Source of the DNA: Candidatus Krumholzibacteriia bacterium | GTDB taxonomy: Bacteria; Krumholzibacteriota; Krumholzibacteriia; LZORAL124-64-63 | Reading direction: 5' to 3' | Assembly: GCA_016744705.1 (NCBI GenBank) | Contig: JADGDU010000004.1 | Location: forward strand, 14,209 to 78,208 | Length of the DNA stretch: 64,000 nt | Shown here: positions 28,554 to 52,244 of the stretch, piece by piece | How positions within the stretch are numbered: the first letter of the stretch is position 1 | Layout: every line of letters begins with the position of its first letter | The notes under the pieces: model-generated | What the model was told of the DNA's origin: nothing | Seen by the model: only the letters and a program-made list of their open reading frames with translations | Database searches by the model: none | Position numbers and translations under genes: made by a program

Positions 28554-29276
28554 CTATTTCACCAGCGCCATTTTTCTGGTTTCAGAGAAATCTTCCCCTT
28601 GCAGGCGGTAGAGATAAATGCCCGCAGGCAGCGCCTCTGCATTCCACTGAAAACGATGCCCCCCGGCGGGCAAGTCCCCTTCATAAACAAGAGAGACCAA
28701 ACGCCCCCGGCTGTCATAAACCTTTAAAGAGACCATTTCATCCTGGGGCAATGTAAAGGCAAGGGTCGTGCTGGGGTTGAAGGGATTGGGATAGTTTTTC
28801 TCCAGACTTGCCATCCCCGGAAGGCTTCCGTCTGGAATATCTGTGAGCCCAGTCCGCGATAGAGTAATGACTCCAGCCTGGGGGTGAGGTTCTGGATCAT
28901 CCCAGTAATTGTAATGCATTTCTATGGTCGCTCCTGTGTAACTGACCACTTCATAGAAAAAATGTTGGTAAAAATATTGCCCAGCATAAACGGTTTCTAA
29001 ATACCAGAAATGCAACCGGTTGGTGGCCTCGTCAAATTCCCATTGTTGGGTATCTGGATAATAATAGGGAGGCATCAGATGGTCCGAAGAGTCGGTATAA
29101 AAACCATTCTCCTGCACCTCCAGAGTCATGTCAAAATGGGAGCCGCCAAAGGTGGTGGAATCAAAGGTCCCCTCCCAGGTTCCCACAAAGTCTGCTTCGG
29201 TGAAGGCCCAAGCGGACAGTGGCGTCAAGCCGATGATGATGACGAATATGGCTTGGAGCGATGGGATAAATTTCAT
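28554..29276 (-). CDS. Secreted Tyr/acid-rich protein with FlgD-Ig/T9SS type-A-like C-terminal sorting domain
   Basis: Signal peptide (…PLSAWA); C-terminal NYPNPFNPST...VYDSRGRLV...LPAGIYLYRL...RKMALVK. Confidence 0.85.
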   Translation of the reverse strand: MKFIPSLQAIFVIIIGLTPLSAWAFTEADFVGTWEGTFDSTTFGGSHFDMTLEVQENGFYTDSSDHLMPPYYYPDTQQWEFDEATNRLHFWYLETVYAGQYFYQHFFYEVVSYTGATIEMHYNYWDDPEPHPQAGVITLSRTGLTDIPDGSLPGMASLEKNYPNPFNPSTTLAFTLPQDEMVSLKVYDSRGRLVSLVYEGDLPAGGHRFQWNAEALPAGIYLYRLQGEDFSETRKMALVK

Positions 29277-44507: not shown

Positions 44508-44631
44508 CTGAAAGAAATATTTTTAAAATTCACCAAAAGGAATTGGTGGCTGGTTGGTTTGGCTGGGCAAGAAGGTTCACACAATACACCATTTATACAA
44601 CGTCCCCCCCGTATTTTCAGGAGCAGAAATC

Positions 44632-45933
44632 ATGAACGATCTTAAAACTTTTCTCACCATAGTTTTGGTCTTGGTCCTCAGCACGTGCCTCCTCTCGGCT
44701 TGTTCCGATGATGACCCCGTGACCCCTTCAGGGGACGACGAAGGCACCTATGAGCCTCCCGAGTTGGCCGGTACCTACATCATCGTAGACACAGATCAAA
44801 TCGTTTGTTATGACGACGAAAACGTGGTTTCTGCTCCAGCCTCTAGTGAAGCGTTCTACGGACAGGATGCCCAAATCGAGGGTGCCCAACCCAGCTTCGT
44901 TGTCAGTGACGACGGGCTGACCACCTATGATGAAGTGACGGGCCTGACCTGGGTGAGCTCGCCTGATACTGACGGTGATGGAGAATTGGAATCCCCCGAA
45001 GACAAACTGACCTGGACTGCGGCCCAGACTTACCCCGCCACCTTGAATGCAGCAGAATTTGGTGGGTTTGACGACTGGCGTCTACCGACCATCAAGGAGC
45101 TCTACTCCTTAATCCAGTACAGCGGTGAAGATGTTTCCCCTGAAAGCCCAAACGGCAGCTTGCCCTTCATCGATACCGATGCTTTCACTTTTGTTTATGG
45201 CAATACAGATGCGCAAGAACGGGTCATCGATTCTCAATATGCCAGCAGCACTCTGTACGTAGGCCAATCGGCCGAAGGTCAGCTTCTGTTTGGAGTCAAC
45301 TTTGCCGACGGCCGCATCAAGGGCTACGGCCTGGAGATGCCCGGGATGGGCGAAAAAACCTTCTTCGTCCAGTGCGTGCGGGGTAACAACGCCTACGGCA
45401 TCAATGCTTTCGCCGACAACGCAGACGGCACCATCACCGACAGCGCCACCGGCTTGATGTGGACCCAGGACGACAGTGGAGTCTCCGTTCCTGCTGGCTT
45501 CAACTGGGAAGAGGCCTTGGCCTGGGTGCAAACTCAAAACGCCGCCGAGTATTTGGGCTACAGCAATTGGCGCCTACCCAACGTTAAGGAACTGGAGAGC
45601 ATCGTCGATTACACCCGCTCACCCTGGACCACCGATTCGGCTGCTATTGACCCCTTGTTCAACGCCACCGTCATCACCGACGAGGCCGGAGAAGACGACT
45701 ATGCCTTCTACTGGAGCGGAACCACACATGCCAGTACCATGGGCGGCGGAGGCGCCTGTTATGTGGCCTTCGGAAAATCTCTGGGCTATATGAATGACAC
45801 TTGGATGGATGTGCACGGTGCTGGCTCCCAACGCAGTGACCCCAAAGCCGGGAACCCCGATGACTATCCCAACGGCCATGGTCCCCAGGGTGATGCCATC
45901 AGGATTTACAACCTGGTGCGGTTGGTCAGGTAA
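44632..45933 (+). CDS. DUF1566 (Lcl C-terminal domain) tandem-domain lipoprotein
   Basis: Lipobox LSAC; two copies of D..TGL.W ... WRLP..KEL; C-terminal DVHGAGSQRSDPK. Start ATG 44632 with SD AGGAG. Confidence 0.9.
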   Translation: MNDLKTFLTIVLVLVLSTCLLSACSDDDPVTPSGDDEGTYEPPELAGTYIIVDTDQIVCYDDENVVSAPASSEAFYGQDAQIEGAQPSFVVSDDGLTTYDEVTGLTWVSSPDTDGDGELESPEDKLTWTAAQTYPATLNAAEFGGFDDWRLPTIKELYSLIQYSGEDVSPESPNGSLPFIDTDAFTFVYGNTDAQERVIDSQYASSTLYVGQSAEGQLLFGVNFADGRIKGYGLEMPGMGEKTFFVQCVRGNNAYGINAFADNADGTITDSATGLMWTQDDSGVSVPAGFNWEEALAWVQTQNAAEYLGYSNWRLPNVKELESIVDYTRSPWTTDSAAIDPLFNATVITDEAGEDDYAFYWSGTTHASTMGGGGACYVAFGKSLGYMNDTWMDVHGAGSQRSDPKAGNPDDYPNGHGPQGDAIRIYNLVRLVR

Positions 45934-45978: not shown

Positions 45979-46012
45979 AATAAAACGGGGAGCCCACGCT
46001 CCCCGTTTTATT
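45979..46012. terminator. Rho-independent terminator (possibly bidirectional)
   Basis: Perfect 15-bp stem AATAAAACGGGGAGC-CCAC-GCTCCCCGTTTTATT. Confidence 0.85.
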
Positions 46013-46123: not shown

Positions 46124-47074
46124 ATGACACAATCAACACCCATCATTCCAATACTCCGCTACACGGTTTTCACCCTCCTCATTTTTCTGATCCCCTCCCA
46201 AGCTTCGGCCTATACCAAATACACTATTAATGACGATGAGACTTATTGCGGCAGTTGCCATGGAGATTTCCGGGATAATAATTACATATCTGCAGTGGAC
46301 GGAGAAAACTGGGGAGATATCCACGACCTGCACCGTAGCACAATGCTTAGCGGCGATTGCAACGCCTGCCACATTGCCGGAGACTACTTTCCCGTTTACA
46401 TGGATTCTTCAGTGGGCGGAAGTGGGTTGGATCCTATCGGTTGCATGGGATGCCATGGTCGGGACGAAGACAATGTCCCTGGAAACCCCTCTTATCCTTT
46501 TGGGGCCGGAGCCGGGCTCAGACAACACCACACCAACACAGGTGTTGATGATTGCCTCGCCTGCCATGATGATGCCAGCCCCTCAAATTATACCCCTGTG
46601 GGTGAGTCAGTTTTGCCTCCCTATTATGCCGACCCGGGAAACTCCCATCCAGCCATGCCCACTGTTCCCTGCAATGACGATGGATCCGAAAATTTTGCCG
46701 GCCTCAGCATTGGCTTAGACAATGATGGAGACGGCCTATATGATGCGGTCGATCCTGAGTGCAACCTCTCCGGTCTGCCTGATGGTGTGTTGCCTGTGGC
46801 CATGCTATCCCAGAATCATCCGAACCCATTCAACCCCAGCACCACCATTGAGTACATGGTCAGCAGCCCAGGCCAAGTGCGGTTGCAGGTTTTCTCCATG
46901 AGTGGGAAACTGGTCACCACTCTGGTTGATGCACAGCACGATGTAGCTGATACGTATCAAGCGGTGTGGAATGGTCATGACGATCAAGGCCGGCCCCTGC
47001 CCAGTGGAGTCTTTTTCTATCGCCTGGCATCCTCCAGAGGGTCTGAAATGAAGAAAATGATTTTACTGAAATAG
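46124..47074 (+). CDS. Tetraheme c-type cytochrome with FlgD-Ig/T9SS-like C-terminal sorting domain
   Basis: Signal peptide; CGSCH, CNACH, CMGCH, CLACH; DNDGDG motif; NHPNPFNPST...SGVFFYRL...KKMILLK. Confidence 0.9.
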   Translation: MTQSTPIIPILRYTVFTLLIFLIPSQASAYTKYTINDDETYCGSCHGDFRDNNYISAVDGENWGDIHDLHRSTMLSGDCNACHIAGDYFPVYMDSSVGGSGLDPIGCMGCHGRDEDNVPGNPSYPFGAGAGLRQHHTNTGVDDCLACHDDASPSNYTPVGESVLPPYYADPGNSHPAMPTVPCNDDGSENFAGLSIGLDNDGDGLYDAVDPECNLSGLPDGVLPVAMLSQNHPNPFNPSTTIEYMVSSPGQVRLQVFSMSGKLVTTLVDAQHDVADTYQAVWNGHDDQGRPLPSGVFFYRLASSRGSEMKKMILLK

Positions 47075-47097
47075 CTTTCCATCTCAGGAATAGTCAG

Positions 47098-47133
47098 TGA
47101 CCCGCCCCACCCAGGGCGGGTCATTTTCCTTTT
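47098..47133 (+). terminator. Rho-independent terminator after cytochrome gene
   Basis: TGACCCGCCC-CACCCA-GGGCGGGTCA followed by TTTTCCTTTTT. Confidence 0.85.
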
Positions 47134-47423
47134 TGCGCAATGAATCGAGTGGGCCAATATTTACCCCGCATGGTGAAAATACTTCCTCAAAAAGACATAA
47201 CCCTATTGTTTCTATAGGGGTTATTTTGAAAACAAAGAAAAGGATTAGACAAAAAAGGATTTCCAAAGTCCAATTTTCATCCTCGAATCATAGAGAATCG
47301 AGAATGATGGAGATTGGACTAATTTGTGCAATAGGGGTTCGTTGGATTTTATTCCGTTCCATGAGGGAGCGGGTTATTTCATGTCTGGTCCTGGCACCAG
47401 ACGCTTCAAGACGGAGGACCCCC

Positions 47424-48281
47424 ATGAAGAAGAACTCTTGGCTTCTGGTAGCAGCAGTGTTGCTGAGCTTGAGCATGGTATTGTTTGCTGGCTGTGACGA
47501 AGACTCGGAAACAATAACCAATACCACCATTATTGAGAGCAAACCATTTGTCAAAGCCATCATTGGACTGGGAGCAAGGTACAAAGCGGAAGACTATTCC
47601 AGTCAGGCCTTAGTCCAGGTTAGCAATTTTTCCATCGTTCCTGGGGTCATGATCAATGGGGGCGTATTACCAGTGAATACTGAATCTACCATTTATGGCG
47701 GTGGAATAGGCTTTGTGGGCGAATATCCAGAGACTGATGATTTCATGGCTAATCTCGTGGTAGGCTTTGGTGAAGGATCCGAGACCGGGACAGCCAGTAT
47801 TATCATGCCTGGCACGAGCGAAGAAATCGGTGATACAGAAATTCAAATGGTCGATTTTGAAGGCATCGAAGTTTCCTGGACCACTGCGGAAAGAGCAGAA
47901 AAATACATGGTCATTGGATACTTTGAGGGCAATTACGTGGACCAGGATGATGAGAATCAGAACTGGTTTTATCAATTCTCCCTTGAAACCACTGATACAA
48001 CCTTAACAATCGCGGCCTCACATATCTGGCCTCCCGAAGCAGATGTTCTTTCTATCAGCAACATTTGGGGAGACCTGGATGTCTTGCCGGTGACAGGTCC
48101 AACAACGCCTGGCGAAGCGGGAAATGTCACTGGCTCCTGCCAGGGAGTCATGGTCGGTTACGGGCATTTCCTGGATTGGGATTTGAACTATAACCCTCTA
48201 AAACAGGACCCCGAATTTGAAAACCGGGAAGCCGATCTCGATTGGCCAGTCCGTTTGATGGAAATGATTTCTCCCCGGTAG
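47424..48281 (+). CDS. Acidic beta-rich lipoprotein of unknown function
   Basis: Start ATG 47424 (SD GGAGG), lipobox FAGC. The upstream extension in the ORF track (from 47097) is probably non-coding. Confidence 0.78.
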   Translation: MKKNSWLLVAAVLLSLSMVLFAGCDEDSETITNTTIIESKPFVKAIIGLGARYKAEDYSSQALVQVSNFSIVPGVMINGGVLPVNTESTIYGGGIGFVGEYPETDDFMANLVVGFGEGSETGTASIIMPGTSEEIGDTEIQMVDFEGIEVSWTTAERAEKYMVIGYFEGNYVDQDDENQNWFYQFSLETTDTTLTIAASHIWPPEADVLSISNIWGDLDVLPVTGPTTPGEAGNVTGSCQGVMVGYGHFLDWDLNYNPLKQDPEFENREADLDWPVRLMEMISPR

Positions 48282-49367: not shown

Positions 49368-51347
49368 TCAAACAAGATTTCTCTTCAAAAATCCCTCAAC
49401 AGTGCTTCCCAATTTTTTGATGCTAATAGGTTTGGTAATATACCCATCCATACCGGATTCAAGTGCTGCCAGCTCATCCTCGGCTCGGGCATGAGCCGAC
49501 ATGGCAATGATCGGAATATGCTCTCTGGTAATAACTTCGCGCTGGCGAATAATCTGAGCCGTTTCATGCCCTCCCAAAATAGGCATCTGAATATCCATCA
49601 AGATCAAATCAAACTGCTCCTCGTCCAAGAGGGTCAAGGCCAATCGGCCATTACCCGCTACCACCACCTCGTATCCCTGCTTTCCTAAAGCCGCCAATGC
49701 TACCTTTTGATTGACCAAATTATCTTCCACCAGAAGAATACGTATAGCCGTATCAGTGGATGGAGAAATAGAAACTAAGTGGGGTTGTTTCTGAATGGGA
49801 GCATCGGACTTTTGCGTTCTATTTTCAGCTTCCTTATCGACTTCCAATTCAACTGTGAAATGGAAACGGCTCCCTTTTCCTTCTTCACTGTCTACCTCAA
49901 TCTGGCCGCCCATGAGTCCAACAATTTTTCTGGAAATAGATAAACCCAGGCCGGTGCCACCAAAACGGCGAGTCGTAGTTCCGTCAGCCTGGGAGAATGA
50001 TTGGAATATTTTTTCCTGATTATCCTTGGAAATACCAATACCGGAATCCACCACCGAAAAATGAATCACTGAAGTCTCGGTTGAGCATTCCAATTCGAGG
50101 ATTTCCAGTCTAACCTCTCCATTGGGAGTAAATTTTATGGCATTTCCCAGCAGGTTGATCAGAACCTGGCCCATCCGGGTAGGGTCTCCCATCATCATCC
50201 GGGGAATCGACTCTGAAATAGTGACGGAAACATTCAATCCCTTTTCATTGGCCAGAGCCTCAATTGGCATCACCCAGGATGAAATGTTATCTCGGAAGTG
50301 GAAAGAAACATTTTCCAACTCCATCTTGTTCGCTTCGATTTTTGATAAATCCAGGATATCGTTGATCAGAACCAATAAATTGTTCGCAGAAAGTTGGACC
50401 AATTCCAGATAGCCTCTTTGTTCTTCATCGAGATCTGTTTCCAACGTCAGATCCGTCATGCCAAGGATGCCATTCATCGGTGTGCGTATTTCGTGGCTCA
50501 TGTTGGCCAGGAATTGACTTTTGGAATGGTTTGCTTGTTCTGCTTCAAGACGGGCCTTCTTCAAATCAATGGTGCGCCCTTGCAGTTTTTCGGCCATGGT
50601 GTTAAATGAATCGGCCACCTGCGCAAAATTATCATTTCCAGGAATAGTGATGCGCCATTTCAACTCCCCATCTCCCAACCGAGTGGCTCCTTCCATAAGT
50701 CTTTGGACCGGAGCTTCCAAAACCAACCTCAGAACAACTAACAAGAGGGTTCCCAATACGATGGACCCGAACAGGAAAACAACCATGAATTTTTTTTCCC
50801 GCTCCACATCCTGGAGAAGTTCTGAATTGTGCTTTTTTATGTTTATAACCAAGTGTTCCACAATAAGTGGCAGATGGGCTCCAGCATCCTGGTACGCTTC
50901 AAGAACGATGGGCTCTATTTCCATGGAGCATGCGAGGCTGGGGTCAAGGAGAGCCTCTTGACTGTATATTTTCAGGGCAAACTCAAGACGCTTTATGCCT
51001 AACTGGAATCCCCTAACAGCATCCGCCCCTGAGTCCATCATCAATTCGTTCAATCCTTCCAATTCTTCCAGAGAACTCCTGCACTGGCTCACATTTGCCA
51101 CTAAGTCTTGGAAGGAATCGATATCACCGGCTAAAATGTTTTGAACTTGGGGGTAAAGATCTTGATACGAAACCTGCAATTGCAACATGGAATCAAGAAC
51201 AGGTTGATCTATACGAACAATACTTTCCACTCGGTTTGAAATAGATGTAAGACCATGGATTAGGTACAAAAAGACAACTAATGCCAGGGCACCCTGTATG
51301 AGAGTCCCCATATTCAAAATTCGGTTAAAAGAAAAGTAGTTTTGCAT
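49368..51347 (-). CDS. Membrane hybrid histidine kinase (periplasmic helical sensor-HAMP-HisKA-HATPase-REC)
   Basis: [31 protein letters not shown], receiver VEDNLVN / LMDIQMP / TKP. Confidence 0.95.
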
Positions 51348-52244
51348 CTACCTCTCTCTCTCTTCCGTCTGAGATGCAAACTCCAGGGTCAGAACTTCAG
51401 AAATCTCTCCACAACCATATTTAGGTTGTTGAGAATCGGGTTCTTCTTTTCGGCCAGCAATTTCAAAGCGGGAAACCCCAAGTCGGTACGATTGCCCGGG
51501 GAATAATTGAACGTCGTCATCATGTTTCGTTTGCAGTTGACGACCAAATTCAATAGTCCAATACCCGTCAGCCCACACACCCTTGGCTCGAATGTCTGCT
51601 CTACTTCCCTCAGGTTTTACCTCTGCAAATCGGGAAACCACTGGGCCTTGATTTATCACCAGGATCTGAGTTTTGTATGCTGGTTTACCCTCGTCGCCCG
51701 AACGTATCAAGTGCATGGATGATCCAGTTTTGCTTGTCAATTGGCTACTGCGAGCCAAAACGGTGGCGGACAATTCCTGGGTTTTATCATCAGCATATCC
51801 GGATCCATTGGTACGGCAGGCTTTCCAGAACCAAATGTCGGCAGTATAAGAAGTGGGAGACAATAGAGTCAGATCCGTATCATCACCGCTGAGAAACCAT
51901 TTAAAAACAAAAACATCCTCTCGGTCATTCCCTGGTGCATACTCATCCTGATCAGCATTCCAAAACCAGCTTCTGTGCGATTGAGAACAGTCTGAATCGG
52001 GATACCGGACCAGAAAATAAATGTGAGTACCCGTATGAACGGCCTTTAATTCCATGGGAATGTTCGCCACTATATCAGTGGTCACTATTCCTGGAACGCT
52101 GCTCCAGGCGCTGTCCAGAGCCGACCCGTCCACGGTAGGCGATATAGAAACTATCTGCGAGACAAGCAATTGATCGGCTTGGCAAAAGCCCGCTATTAAA
52201 ACCAATGCTCCCCAGAGAATGATCAGAAAGATTCGTGATGCCAT
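51348..52244 (-). CDS. Periplasmic EB_dh / DOMON-like (ethylbenzene dehydrogenase gamma-type) domain protein
   Basis: Signal peptide; P.VDG...D.AW, LKAVH...IYFLV.YPD, REDVF...W, DIWFWKA.RT...GYADD, G.W..G.WT.EF.R.L.T...DD. Confidence 0.75.
   Translation of the reverse strand: MASRIFLIILWGALVLIAGFCQADQLLVSQIVSISPTVDGSALDSAWSSVPGIVTTDIVANIPMELKAVHTGTHIYFLVRYPDSDCSQSHRSWFWNADQDEYAPGNDREDVFVFKWFLSGDDTDLTLLSPTSYTADIWFWKACRTNGSGYADDKTQELSATVLARSSQLTSKTGSSMHLIRSGDEGKPAYKTQILVINQGPVVSRFAEVKPEGSRADIRAKGVWADGYWTIEFGRQLQTKHDDDVQLFPGQSYRLGVSRFEIAGRKEEPDSQQPKYGCGEISEVLTLEFASQTEERER

Follow-up and report, generated by a model that had tools for sequence, protein, structure and literature searches.

Characterised extracellular cytochromes reach the cell surface as lipoproteins secreted by the type II system or as filament subunits. 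MtrC, OmcA and MtrF, the multihaem c-type cytochromes at the outer face of the diderm Shewanella cell, are lipoproteins exported through the type II system, and OmcE of Geobacter is a small, mostly loop-built, extracellular protein that carries four c-type haems. Type A cargo of the T9SS (type IX secretion system), exemplified by the gingipains, PorU and PorZ of Porphyromonas gingivalis and by RemZ of Flavobacterium johnsoniae, is composed of a Sec signal, a functional domain, a flexible linker and an Ig-like C-terminal sorting domain (CTD) of about 80 amino acids (aa). Here we describe a gene with the same architecture, at positions 46124 to 47074 of a 64,000-nucleotide stretch (the window) of contig JADGDU010000004.1 from a Candidatus Krumholzibacteriia bacterium. 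Unlike Bacteroidota T9SS cargo, the passenger is a multihaem cytochrome, the host lies outside the Bacteroidota, and GldK, GldL, GldM and GldN were not detected in its genome. Like MtrC and OmcA, the protein is a multihaem c-type cytochrome with a predicted place at the outer face of a diderm cell and a weak match to PF22113, but it has four haems rather than ten, no lipoprotein signal, no flanking beta-barrel domains and a T9SS CTD instead.

An earlier reading made from the DNA letters alone (the sequence-only reading) had proposed this anatomy and a T9SS-like export route, and both gained support from the score and modelled fold of the CTD, from SprA, PorU and PorV in the host, and from 142 CTD tails in the same genome. 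That the tetrahaem protein is T9SS cargo is well supported and we consider it likely. A role in respiratory extracellular electron transfer is plausible, with the indications for and against it about evenly balanced, and the composite, a haem-loaded, T9SS-exported electron carrier of the outer face, is the reading to which we lean slightly. The parts of the gene are as follows.

46124..47074 (+): whole gene for a T9SS-tagged tetrahaem c-type cytochrome, 316-aa precursor; open reading frame (ORF) from ATG, stop codon included
46124..46210 (+): Sec-type signal peptide, aa 1-29, predicted cleavage ASA/Y, read from the translation
46211..46669 (+): haem-binding core, aa 30-182, with columns invariant in alignments A1, A2 and A3
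46247-46261, 46358-46372, 46442-46456 and 46553-46567 (+): CxxCH motifs, within the haem-binding core
46670..46762 (+): acidic loop C183-C213 (GLDNDGDGLYDAVDPEC), a calcium-binding-type, thrombospondin-type-3-like motif within the conserved module
46763..46819 (+): linker, aa 214-232, of low predicted local distance difference test score (pLDDT) and probably disordered; expected region of CTD removal
46820..47071 (+): T9SS type A CTD, aa 233-316 (NHPNPFNPST...GVFFYRL...KKMILLK), from TIGR04183 and Foldseek

The sorting domain and the secretion genes of the host

The C-terminal T9SS-type domain named in the sequence-only reading was recovered by hidden Markov model (HMM) search and by structure. 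TIGR04183, the T9SS type A sorting domain, matched aa 233-313 of 316 at 29.1 bits against a cut-off of 23, and a TIGR04183 scan of the whole genome placed the CTD at the same site (C100:61028-61270). FlgD_ig, the second model named in that reading, reached 22.2 bits and so stayed below its cut-off of 27, as did the other Pfam tail models, PF18962 Por_Secre_tail at 21.9 bits and CHU_C at 21-22 bits. A full-length AlphaFold2 (AF2) model built with 100 homologues had a mean pLDDT of 85.1, with values of 89-97 over aa 240-300 of the CTD and below 50 over linker residues 216-223. The best Foldseek matches of this model in the PDB all fell on the CTD, which resembled the CTDs of P. gingivalis PorU (6za2, E 9.9e-6) and PorZ (5m11, E 2.4e-4) and of RemZ in the SprA translocon complex (8gl8_D, E 1.6e-3); FlgD Ig domains were also among the matches. 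The NCBI pipeline labels one fragmentary homologue (P0073; L- and P-numbers denote related loci and proteins in this analysis, and G000 the window's own genome) a "T9SS type A sorting domain-containing protein", so the sorting tail is already machine-recognised. PMC5317091 describes TIGR04183 as confined to the superphylum of Fibrobacteres, Chlorobi and Bacteroidetes (FCB).

The host assembly totals 4.43 Mb over 155 contigs, is 94.7% complete with 0.88% contamination, and contained 145 TIGR04183 matches, the 142 mentioned above being over the cut-off. SprA was found as a 2182-aa ORF (509.5 bits summed against 200) and PorU at 493.5 bits against 420, with a Peptidase_C25 match of 251.5 bits. 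PorV is encoded directly downstream of porU and scored 57.7 against 27 with the Pfam model and 91.3 against 250 with the NCBIfam model. The named relatives of the host PorU are four records labelled Krumholzibacteria, -ota or -ia and one labelled Gemmatimonadales. Genes for cytochrome c maturation, which the sequence-only reading had asked after, are represented by a fused ResB-CcsA (CcsBA) in a 1197-aa ORF on contig C95 (PF01578, 122.4 bits; PF05140, 36.4 and 32.6 bits) and by a second CcsA-like ORF on C144.

The search for T9SS core genes thus returned the translocon, sortase and shuttle and did not return the ring and motor proteins. In the host genome the best GldK score was 74 bits against 350, and GldL, GldM and GldN gave no match; a survey of 61 genomes from the phylum gave no GldM either. 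These models found no positive control among 14 control genomes, and therefore the absence stands as "not detected" rather than as shown; the incompleteness of the host assembly (94.7%) is a further caveat. Should the absence prove real, the phylum would operate a T9SS that dispenses with the known motor and ring. The mode of action of SprA/PorU/PorV systems in phyla without a detectable GldKLMN motor becomes a question of interest.

The undetected Gld proteins and the Pfam tail models below their cut-offs, with FlgD_ig scoring about the same as the T9SS tail model, count against T9SS export. They favour an alternative in which the protein is a periplasmic tetrahaem shuttle, either because its FlgD-Ig-type domain serves a structural or binding function or because export fails without a T9SS motor. 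We consider this alternative improbable. TIGR04183 exceeds its cut-off, the domain sits at the extreme C terminus with K as the final residue, and SprA, PorU and PorV accompany a cargo set of 142 members, which is hard to explain without a working T9SS.

Parts for each step of T9SS export, from the Sec signal to CTD removal, exist in the protein and the genome. The precursor would be exported by Sec and its four covalent haems loaded in the periplasm by the fused ResB-CcsA (system II, CcsBA) synthetase, after which the protein would fold around the haems, its acidic loop bracketed by C183 and C213 and probably holding calcium at DNDGD. The CTD would then be recognised by PorV (the shuttle) and SprA (the translocon), the folded holo-protein would be translocated, and the PorU sortase would cut off the CTD within the disordered linker. 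The 20-kDa haem module would thereby be linked to the cell surface or released, and would exchange electrons at the outer face between an outer-membrane conduit (the host offers one MtrA/MtrB-like candidate) and acceptors or donors outside the cell. We infer from the established workings of T9SS in Bacteroidota that the steps up to CTD removal act on the tetrahaem cytochrome; export, CTD cleavage, haem occupancy, calcium binding, and the direction and partner of electron flow are all meant in this conditional sense.

The haem module and its family

A homologue search with the whole protein considered 2002 candidates, 997 of which reached E<=1e-3. Conservation was read from alignments of 30 rows (A1), 100 close homologues (A2), 19 haem-module sequences (A4) and 124 distant rows that are mostly 50%-identity representatives (A5). 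The Sec signal of the sequence-only reading has recognisable n, h and c regions by eye: R12 is charged, residues 14-24 are hydrophobic, and A27-S-A29 precedes Y30, with A29 at least 90% conserved in A1 and A2. The four CxxCH motifs lie at C42, C79, C107 and C144 as that reading had placed them. Their conservation, which it had left to be checked, was complete: the motifs are invariant in 30/30 rows of A1 and 100/100 of A2, and so far beyond chance.

The proposed spare ligands H67, H70, H135 and H136 are present, and in A2 H70 and H136 are invariant while H67, H135 and H175 are kept in at least 90% of rows, H175 being a fifth conserved spare His that had not been noted before. In the distant alignment A5 the invariant positions are motif 3 and H148. 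The remaining haem-motif residues, together with H70, H136, C183 and C213, show conservation of 90% or above, but H67, H135 and H175 fall below 90%. Only H70 and H136 thus remain at that level as spare His, which counts against bis-His ligation of all four haems and leaves it not secured. M74 is invariant in A4. We conclude from the alignments that the four haem-binding motifs are secure across the family and that, among close relatives, all four haems probably have bis-His ligation.

The acidic loop follows the layout C183...D199-N-D-G-D203...D207..D210..C213, with the stretch DNDGDGLYDAVDPEC213, and so contains the calcium-binding-type motif described in the sequence-only reading; C183, N200, G202 and C213 are invariant in A2. 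NF033662 (acid_disulf_rpt), a model that expects several acidic disulfide repeats where this protein has one, scored 26.3 bits against a cut-off of 41 and matches 47/124 family members. The loop probably binds calcium and is probably closed by a C183-C213 disulfide.

No curated Pfam or NCBIfam model matched the haem module over its cut-off. The multihaem-profile search proposed earlier returned sub-threshold matches to MtrC/MtrF, C7 and c3_2 models, with every cytochrome model below its cut-off. PF22113, the MtrC/MtrF domain II/IV model, came closest over aa 26-87 (27.7 bits against 30), and 67/124 family members match it at E<=1e-3; TIGR03507 (OmcA/MtrC) reached 16.6 bits against 209.3. With both models below their cut-offs and four haems in place of ten, membership of the MtrC/OmcA family was rejected. 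PF14522 Cytochrome_C7 (22.1 against 24.8 bits), PF14537 Cytochrom_c3_2 (20.9 against 25) and PF02085 (11 against 22.9) all fell short of their gathering cut-offs, and membership of the cytochrome c3/c7 family was rejected on that ground. The module resembles cytochrome c3, STC and c7-type proteins in size and haem density, but it has in addition the Cys-bracketed acidic loop and the C-terminal sorting signal, and Foldseek finds no c3 or STC structure.

An AF2 model of aa 29-216 was confident (pLDDT 90.6; predicted template modelling score, pTM, 0.86). Foldseek matched this apo model to no cytochrome fold in the PDB, which does not help the cytochrome reading, and so haem packing cannot be judged from it. 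The best PDB match by sequence was an unrelated bc1 subunit at E 0.19. For two haem-domain copies with four haems, complex prediction gave scores of 0.00 and 0.04, where the mark is 0.42; this is neither support nor counter-evidence. We conclude that the haem module represents a large tetrahaem family without a curated model and without a solved structural match.

The haem count of OmcE and of archaeal tetrahaem filaments is the same as that of the module, and close homologues have five conserved spare His for four haems, which would leave one for ligation between subunits. These features, and the direction of the module to the outside of the cell, would suit an exported module that polymerises into a cytochrome filament (nanowire), as the tetrahaem OmcE does. 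We regard this as very improbable, as no sequence or fold match was found to any PDB entry for a solved cytochrome, filament-forming ones included, and bulky C-terminal fusions in many relatives suit a tethered monomer more than they suit a subunit of a filament.

A search of 1.84 billion representatives with the A4 profile found 783 clusters (50% identity) at E<=1e-3, of which 618 reach E<=1e-10 and 272 reach E<=1e-30. The module starts within about 40 residues of the N terminus in nearly all of the 150 matches listed, in proteins of 119-1303 aa. Among close homologues, the 120 best (query included) were sorted by tail type with our own regular expressions. A T9SS-CTD-like tail was present in 76/120, and 70 of these 76 combine it with four CxxCH motifs at a length of 305-333 aa. 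The remainder had a short ...WGxxKxx[FY]R tail (20/120), a tail of Cys, hydrophobic and basic residues (6/120), a GC-dockerin-like tail (6/120) or other tails (12/120, among which P0055, P0067 and P0071 appear CTD-like by eye). HMM scans of 124 family members found TIGR04183 in 8, PKD in 7, MYXO-CTERM, choice-of-anchor D and a MopE-type metal-binding motif in 6 each, Dockerin and Big_9 in 4 each, Cadherin-like in 3 and FG-GAP in 2. MYXO-CTERM exceeded its cut-off of 20 in P0093 (25.1) and P0106 (22.8), and PEP-CTERM-like tails were visible in P0174, P0237 and P0254.

A scan of a species-genome collection gave 599 pattern matches, of which 185 were confirmed as relatives; the 80 best of these were taken as loci. 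CTD-bearing copies with at least three CxxCH motifs occur at L012-L015, L017-L020 and L025; those with a named host are from Krumholzibacteriia or Krumholzibacteriota (L014, L015, L018, L025) and Latescibacterota (L020). The locus from Polyangiaceae (L021) has a tail of Cys, transmembrane and basic segments, and one from Gammaproteobacteria (L043) ends in a PEP-CTERM-like tail. L016, labelled Acidobacteriota, matched through residue 312 and is an exception. Further relatives come from lineages labelled Nitrospira, Nitrospinota, Lysobacterales and Acidiferrobacteraceae, and the named close relatives of the cytochrome are from Krumholzibacteriia and Eisenbacteria. We conclude that tail type follows host.

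The sequence-only reading had treated the protein as a one-off fusion, and this did not hold, as the protein represents one of the tail variants in a large cytochrome family that spans many phyla. The same N-terminal module with varied surface tags argues for a surface-directed redox module, and no other indirect evidence speaks as strongly for a site of action at or beyond the outer membrane. The NCBIfam "choice-of-anchor" domains are alike in placing one N-terminal module before lineage-dependent sorting tails, but no curated model covers the haem module, and the sole such match to the query was choice_anch_V at E 0.18. Anchor swapping also gives an experimental handle, with one module bearing different tags in different hosts. 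For the periplasmic alternative raised above the tails count on both sides: only a short tail follows the haem module in 20/120 of the best homologues, but other members carry surface signals (MYXO-CTERM, PEP-CTERM-like, dockerin), and the short-tail motif recurs on other small exported-looking proteins. We propose tentatively, and with more doubt than belief, that this is an anchor-swappable, structurally new outer-face tetrahaem module in more than 10 phyla, posted by T9SS, myxosortase, exosortase or dockerin, and that T9SS in the FCB group exports haem-loaded cytochromes, also without recognisable GldKLMN.

The homologues bear as well on whether the gene is an artefact of assembly or gene calling, in which a cytochrome gene and a foreign CTD were joined into a chimera. 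The host genome is a 155-contig metagenome-type assembly, which would allow for such a join. However, the 70 homologues with four CxxCH motifs and a CTD-like tail at nearly the same length come from several sources, 91% and 25% of the sampled words are present in two further sequencing runs from one study, and the reading frame is uninterrupted and flanked by terminators. The chance of a chimera is negligible, and the explanation was rejected as effectively refuted by the many full-length homologues.

Two other C-terminal ends recur among the relatives. Gammaproteobacterial and Lysobacterales loci (L023, L024, L026, L031, L041) share a different end, ...CNSGTVEYNIPSI..G.VPIQR....N...CE, which is also found in P0139, P0143 and P0151. 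The pattern W-G-x-[ILV]-K-x-x-[FY]-R-stop at the extreme C terminus, the short tail that replaces the T9SS CTD in 20/120 of the best homologues, occurred at 20 sites in G151, the genome of L059, and at 12 sites in G152, the genome of L022, with 0 sites in either genome for a reversed-pattern control. The same tail ends ten G000 ORFs for small proteins with PPC, lamin-tail, C-type-lectin or RskA_C matches (C55:15455-16090, C67:87416-88114, C67:192730-193764, C69:25473-26276, C71:13107-13706, C78:179250-180230, C80:17517-18218, C99:3010-4038, C122:432-1376 and C155:66314-67234). It had no NCBIfam match and may be an undescribed sorting signal.

Electron-transfer setting and possible roles

The host is rich in multihaem cytochromes, with 26 ORFs having at least two CxxCH motifs and up to 19 in one protein, by script count. 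A second CTD-tagged cytochrome, P0121 (G000:C55:48812-50719; L104:5813-7720), has 635 aa and five CxxCH motifs, and FlgD_ig (38.6 bits) and TIGR04183 (34.3 bits) match it at the same place. Its architecture is unrelated to the tetrahaem family, and a CotH-LTD protein with a CTD is encoded upstream. On contig C133 (G000:C133:6731-11729; L105:4732-9730), a decahaem cytochrome of the DmsE/MtrA family (TIGR03508, 209.8 against 192.2 bits) is followed by a 627-aa signal-peptide protein that resembles outer membrane proteins, ends in F and has no HMM match. Atlas features of the 627-aa protein score 0.98 to MtrB/PioB clusters (18/30 matches). It is followed by another protein with 10 CxxCH motifs and by a rhodanese lipoprotein. 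The cluster is a candidate MtrA/MtrB-like porin-cytochrome conduit.

On contig C89 (G000:C89:96832-99657, minus strand; L106:4833-7658), a 941-aa protein combines 19 CxxCH motifs with a C-terminal cytochrome b domain that is FdnI/Ni_hydr_CYTB-like and thus similar to the formate dehydrogenase gamma subunit. It is a candidate inner-membrane gate for electrons from quinol to the periplasm. The C89 protein, the C133 cluster and the second CTD-tagged cytochrome are thus candidates for three steps of extracellular electron transfer: on the quinol side, across the outer membrane and at the outer face.

Several observations weigh against a core respiratory role for the tetrahaem cytochrome. None of the candidates is linked to its gene, which does not lie next to the MtrAB-like cluster. 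A query with the haem domain matched 19/151 genomes of the phylum at E<=1e-3, with strong matches (E<1e-40) in only 8/151, G000 included, and in 0/3 other genomes of the same genus. No conserved neighbour of the cytochrome gene emerged when 862 ORFs from the 80 related loci and the window were clustered; the next largest neighbour clusters (10, 8 and 5 loci) held kinases, antisense-frame ORFs and histidine kinases. The gene looks monocistronic and has no conserved neighbour; given its patchy distribution it is not a core respiratory component. Moreover, relatives in mostly aerobic lineages (Nitrospira, Nitrospinota, Lysobacterales) are a misfit with a role limited to metal reduction.

The same observations favour an alternative in which the protein is exported to the surface by T9SS and serves a purpose other than mineral respiration. 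Candidate functions are a ferric or metal reductase for iron acquisition, Fe(II)/Mn(II) oxidation or electron uptake, a redox buffer, or a scavenger of peroxide or radicals. An accessory gene that stands alone between two terminators without a conserved partner would suit such functions, as would family members in lineages labelled as aerobes or lithotrophs, Acidiferrobacteraceae included, and the MopE-type metal-binding motif in 6/124 members. But the multihaem cytochromes, the MtrA/MtrB-like conduit and the 19-haem/cytochrome b fusion of the host are the usual setting for respiratory extracellular electron transfer, and Pfam and NCBIfam scans found no peroxidase-type or sensor-type domain in the protein. 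We regard the alternative as possible though unlikely, and continue to prefer the outer-face electron carrier.

A full-text literature search found no description of T9SS-sorted multihaem cytochromes, although the supplementary tables of PMC11495043 may list relatives, and no paper on type IX secretion in lineages named Krumholzibacteri-. The parts of PMC11495043 drawn on here predict extracellular multihaem proteins in metagenome-assembled genomes of Bacteroidota and Krumholzibacteriota and do not mention type IX secretion, and the corresponding parts of PMC7914226 hold nothing on secretion. What is new is thus a putative class of T9SS cargo and an undescribed, structurally unassigned tetrahaem family with interchangeable surface anchors; what is known is the machine-recognised tail.

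A T9SS-tagged cytochrome would add an export route for extracellular cytochromes, and if the reading is true, T9SS would be a secretion route for extracellular electron transfer beyond the characterised ones. The range of T9SS cargo would likewise widen from hydrolases and adhesins to cofactor-loaded redox proteins. With 783 clusters in many phyla and neither a curated model nor a solved relative, the family is therefore probably missed by marker-based surveys of electron transfer.

Flanking hairpins and neighbouring genes

The sequence-only reading had placed terminators on both sides of the gene, and a strong hairpin was found at each flank.

45979..46012 (+): upstream hairpin, terminator-like in both directions, with an A-run, 8 G+C-rich pairs and a T-run
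47096..47125 (+): downstream intrinsic-terminator-like hairpin of 12 pairs, 8 of them GC, followed by the TTTTCCTTTTT T-run

The upstream hairpin has a folding energy of -24 kcal/mol (z -7.56; 0/200 shuffles equally good), and a terminator scan of its site returned only a 5-pair match on the minus strand, at 45997-45985. The downstream hairpin folds at -23.4 kcal/mol (z -6.26). With strong hairpins on both flanks, the cytochrome gene therefore looks monocistronic. No anomaly in GC content or skew was seen around it. A search of sequencing runs found the gene in 3 DNA runs, all from one marine-metagenome study, and in no RNA run. Together with the named relatives of PorU and of the cytochrome, this suggests that the host is a marine member of the Krumholzibacteriota.

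The upstream hairpin stands between the cytochrome gene and a gene at 44554-45933 (+) for a lipoprotein-like protein of 459 aa with two Lcl_C (DUF1566-type) domains (150.8 bits). The downstream ORF at 47097-48281 (+) is also lipoprotein-like, with an internal MKKNSW...FAGC lipobox and no family match. Other neighbours in the window include an ECF sigma factor, a glyoxalase-fold protein and histidine kinases. A hybrid histidine kinase gene at 49368-51347 is directly adjoined by a gene at 51348-52244 (minus strand) for a protein whose EB_dh domain (ethylbenzene-dehydrogenase-like, haem-binding) scores 72.1 bits. A further T9SS type A CTD, at 39.2 bits, ends a 253-aa frame at 28569-28793 of the window (minus strand; G000:C100:42777-43001).

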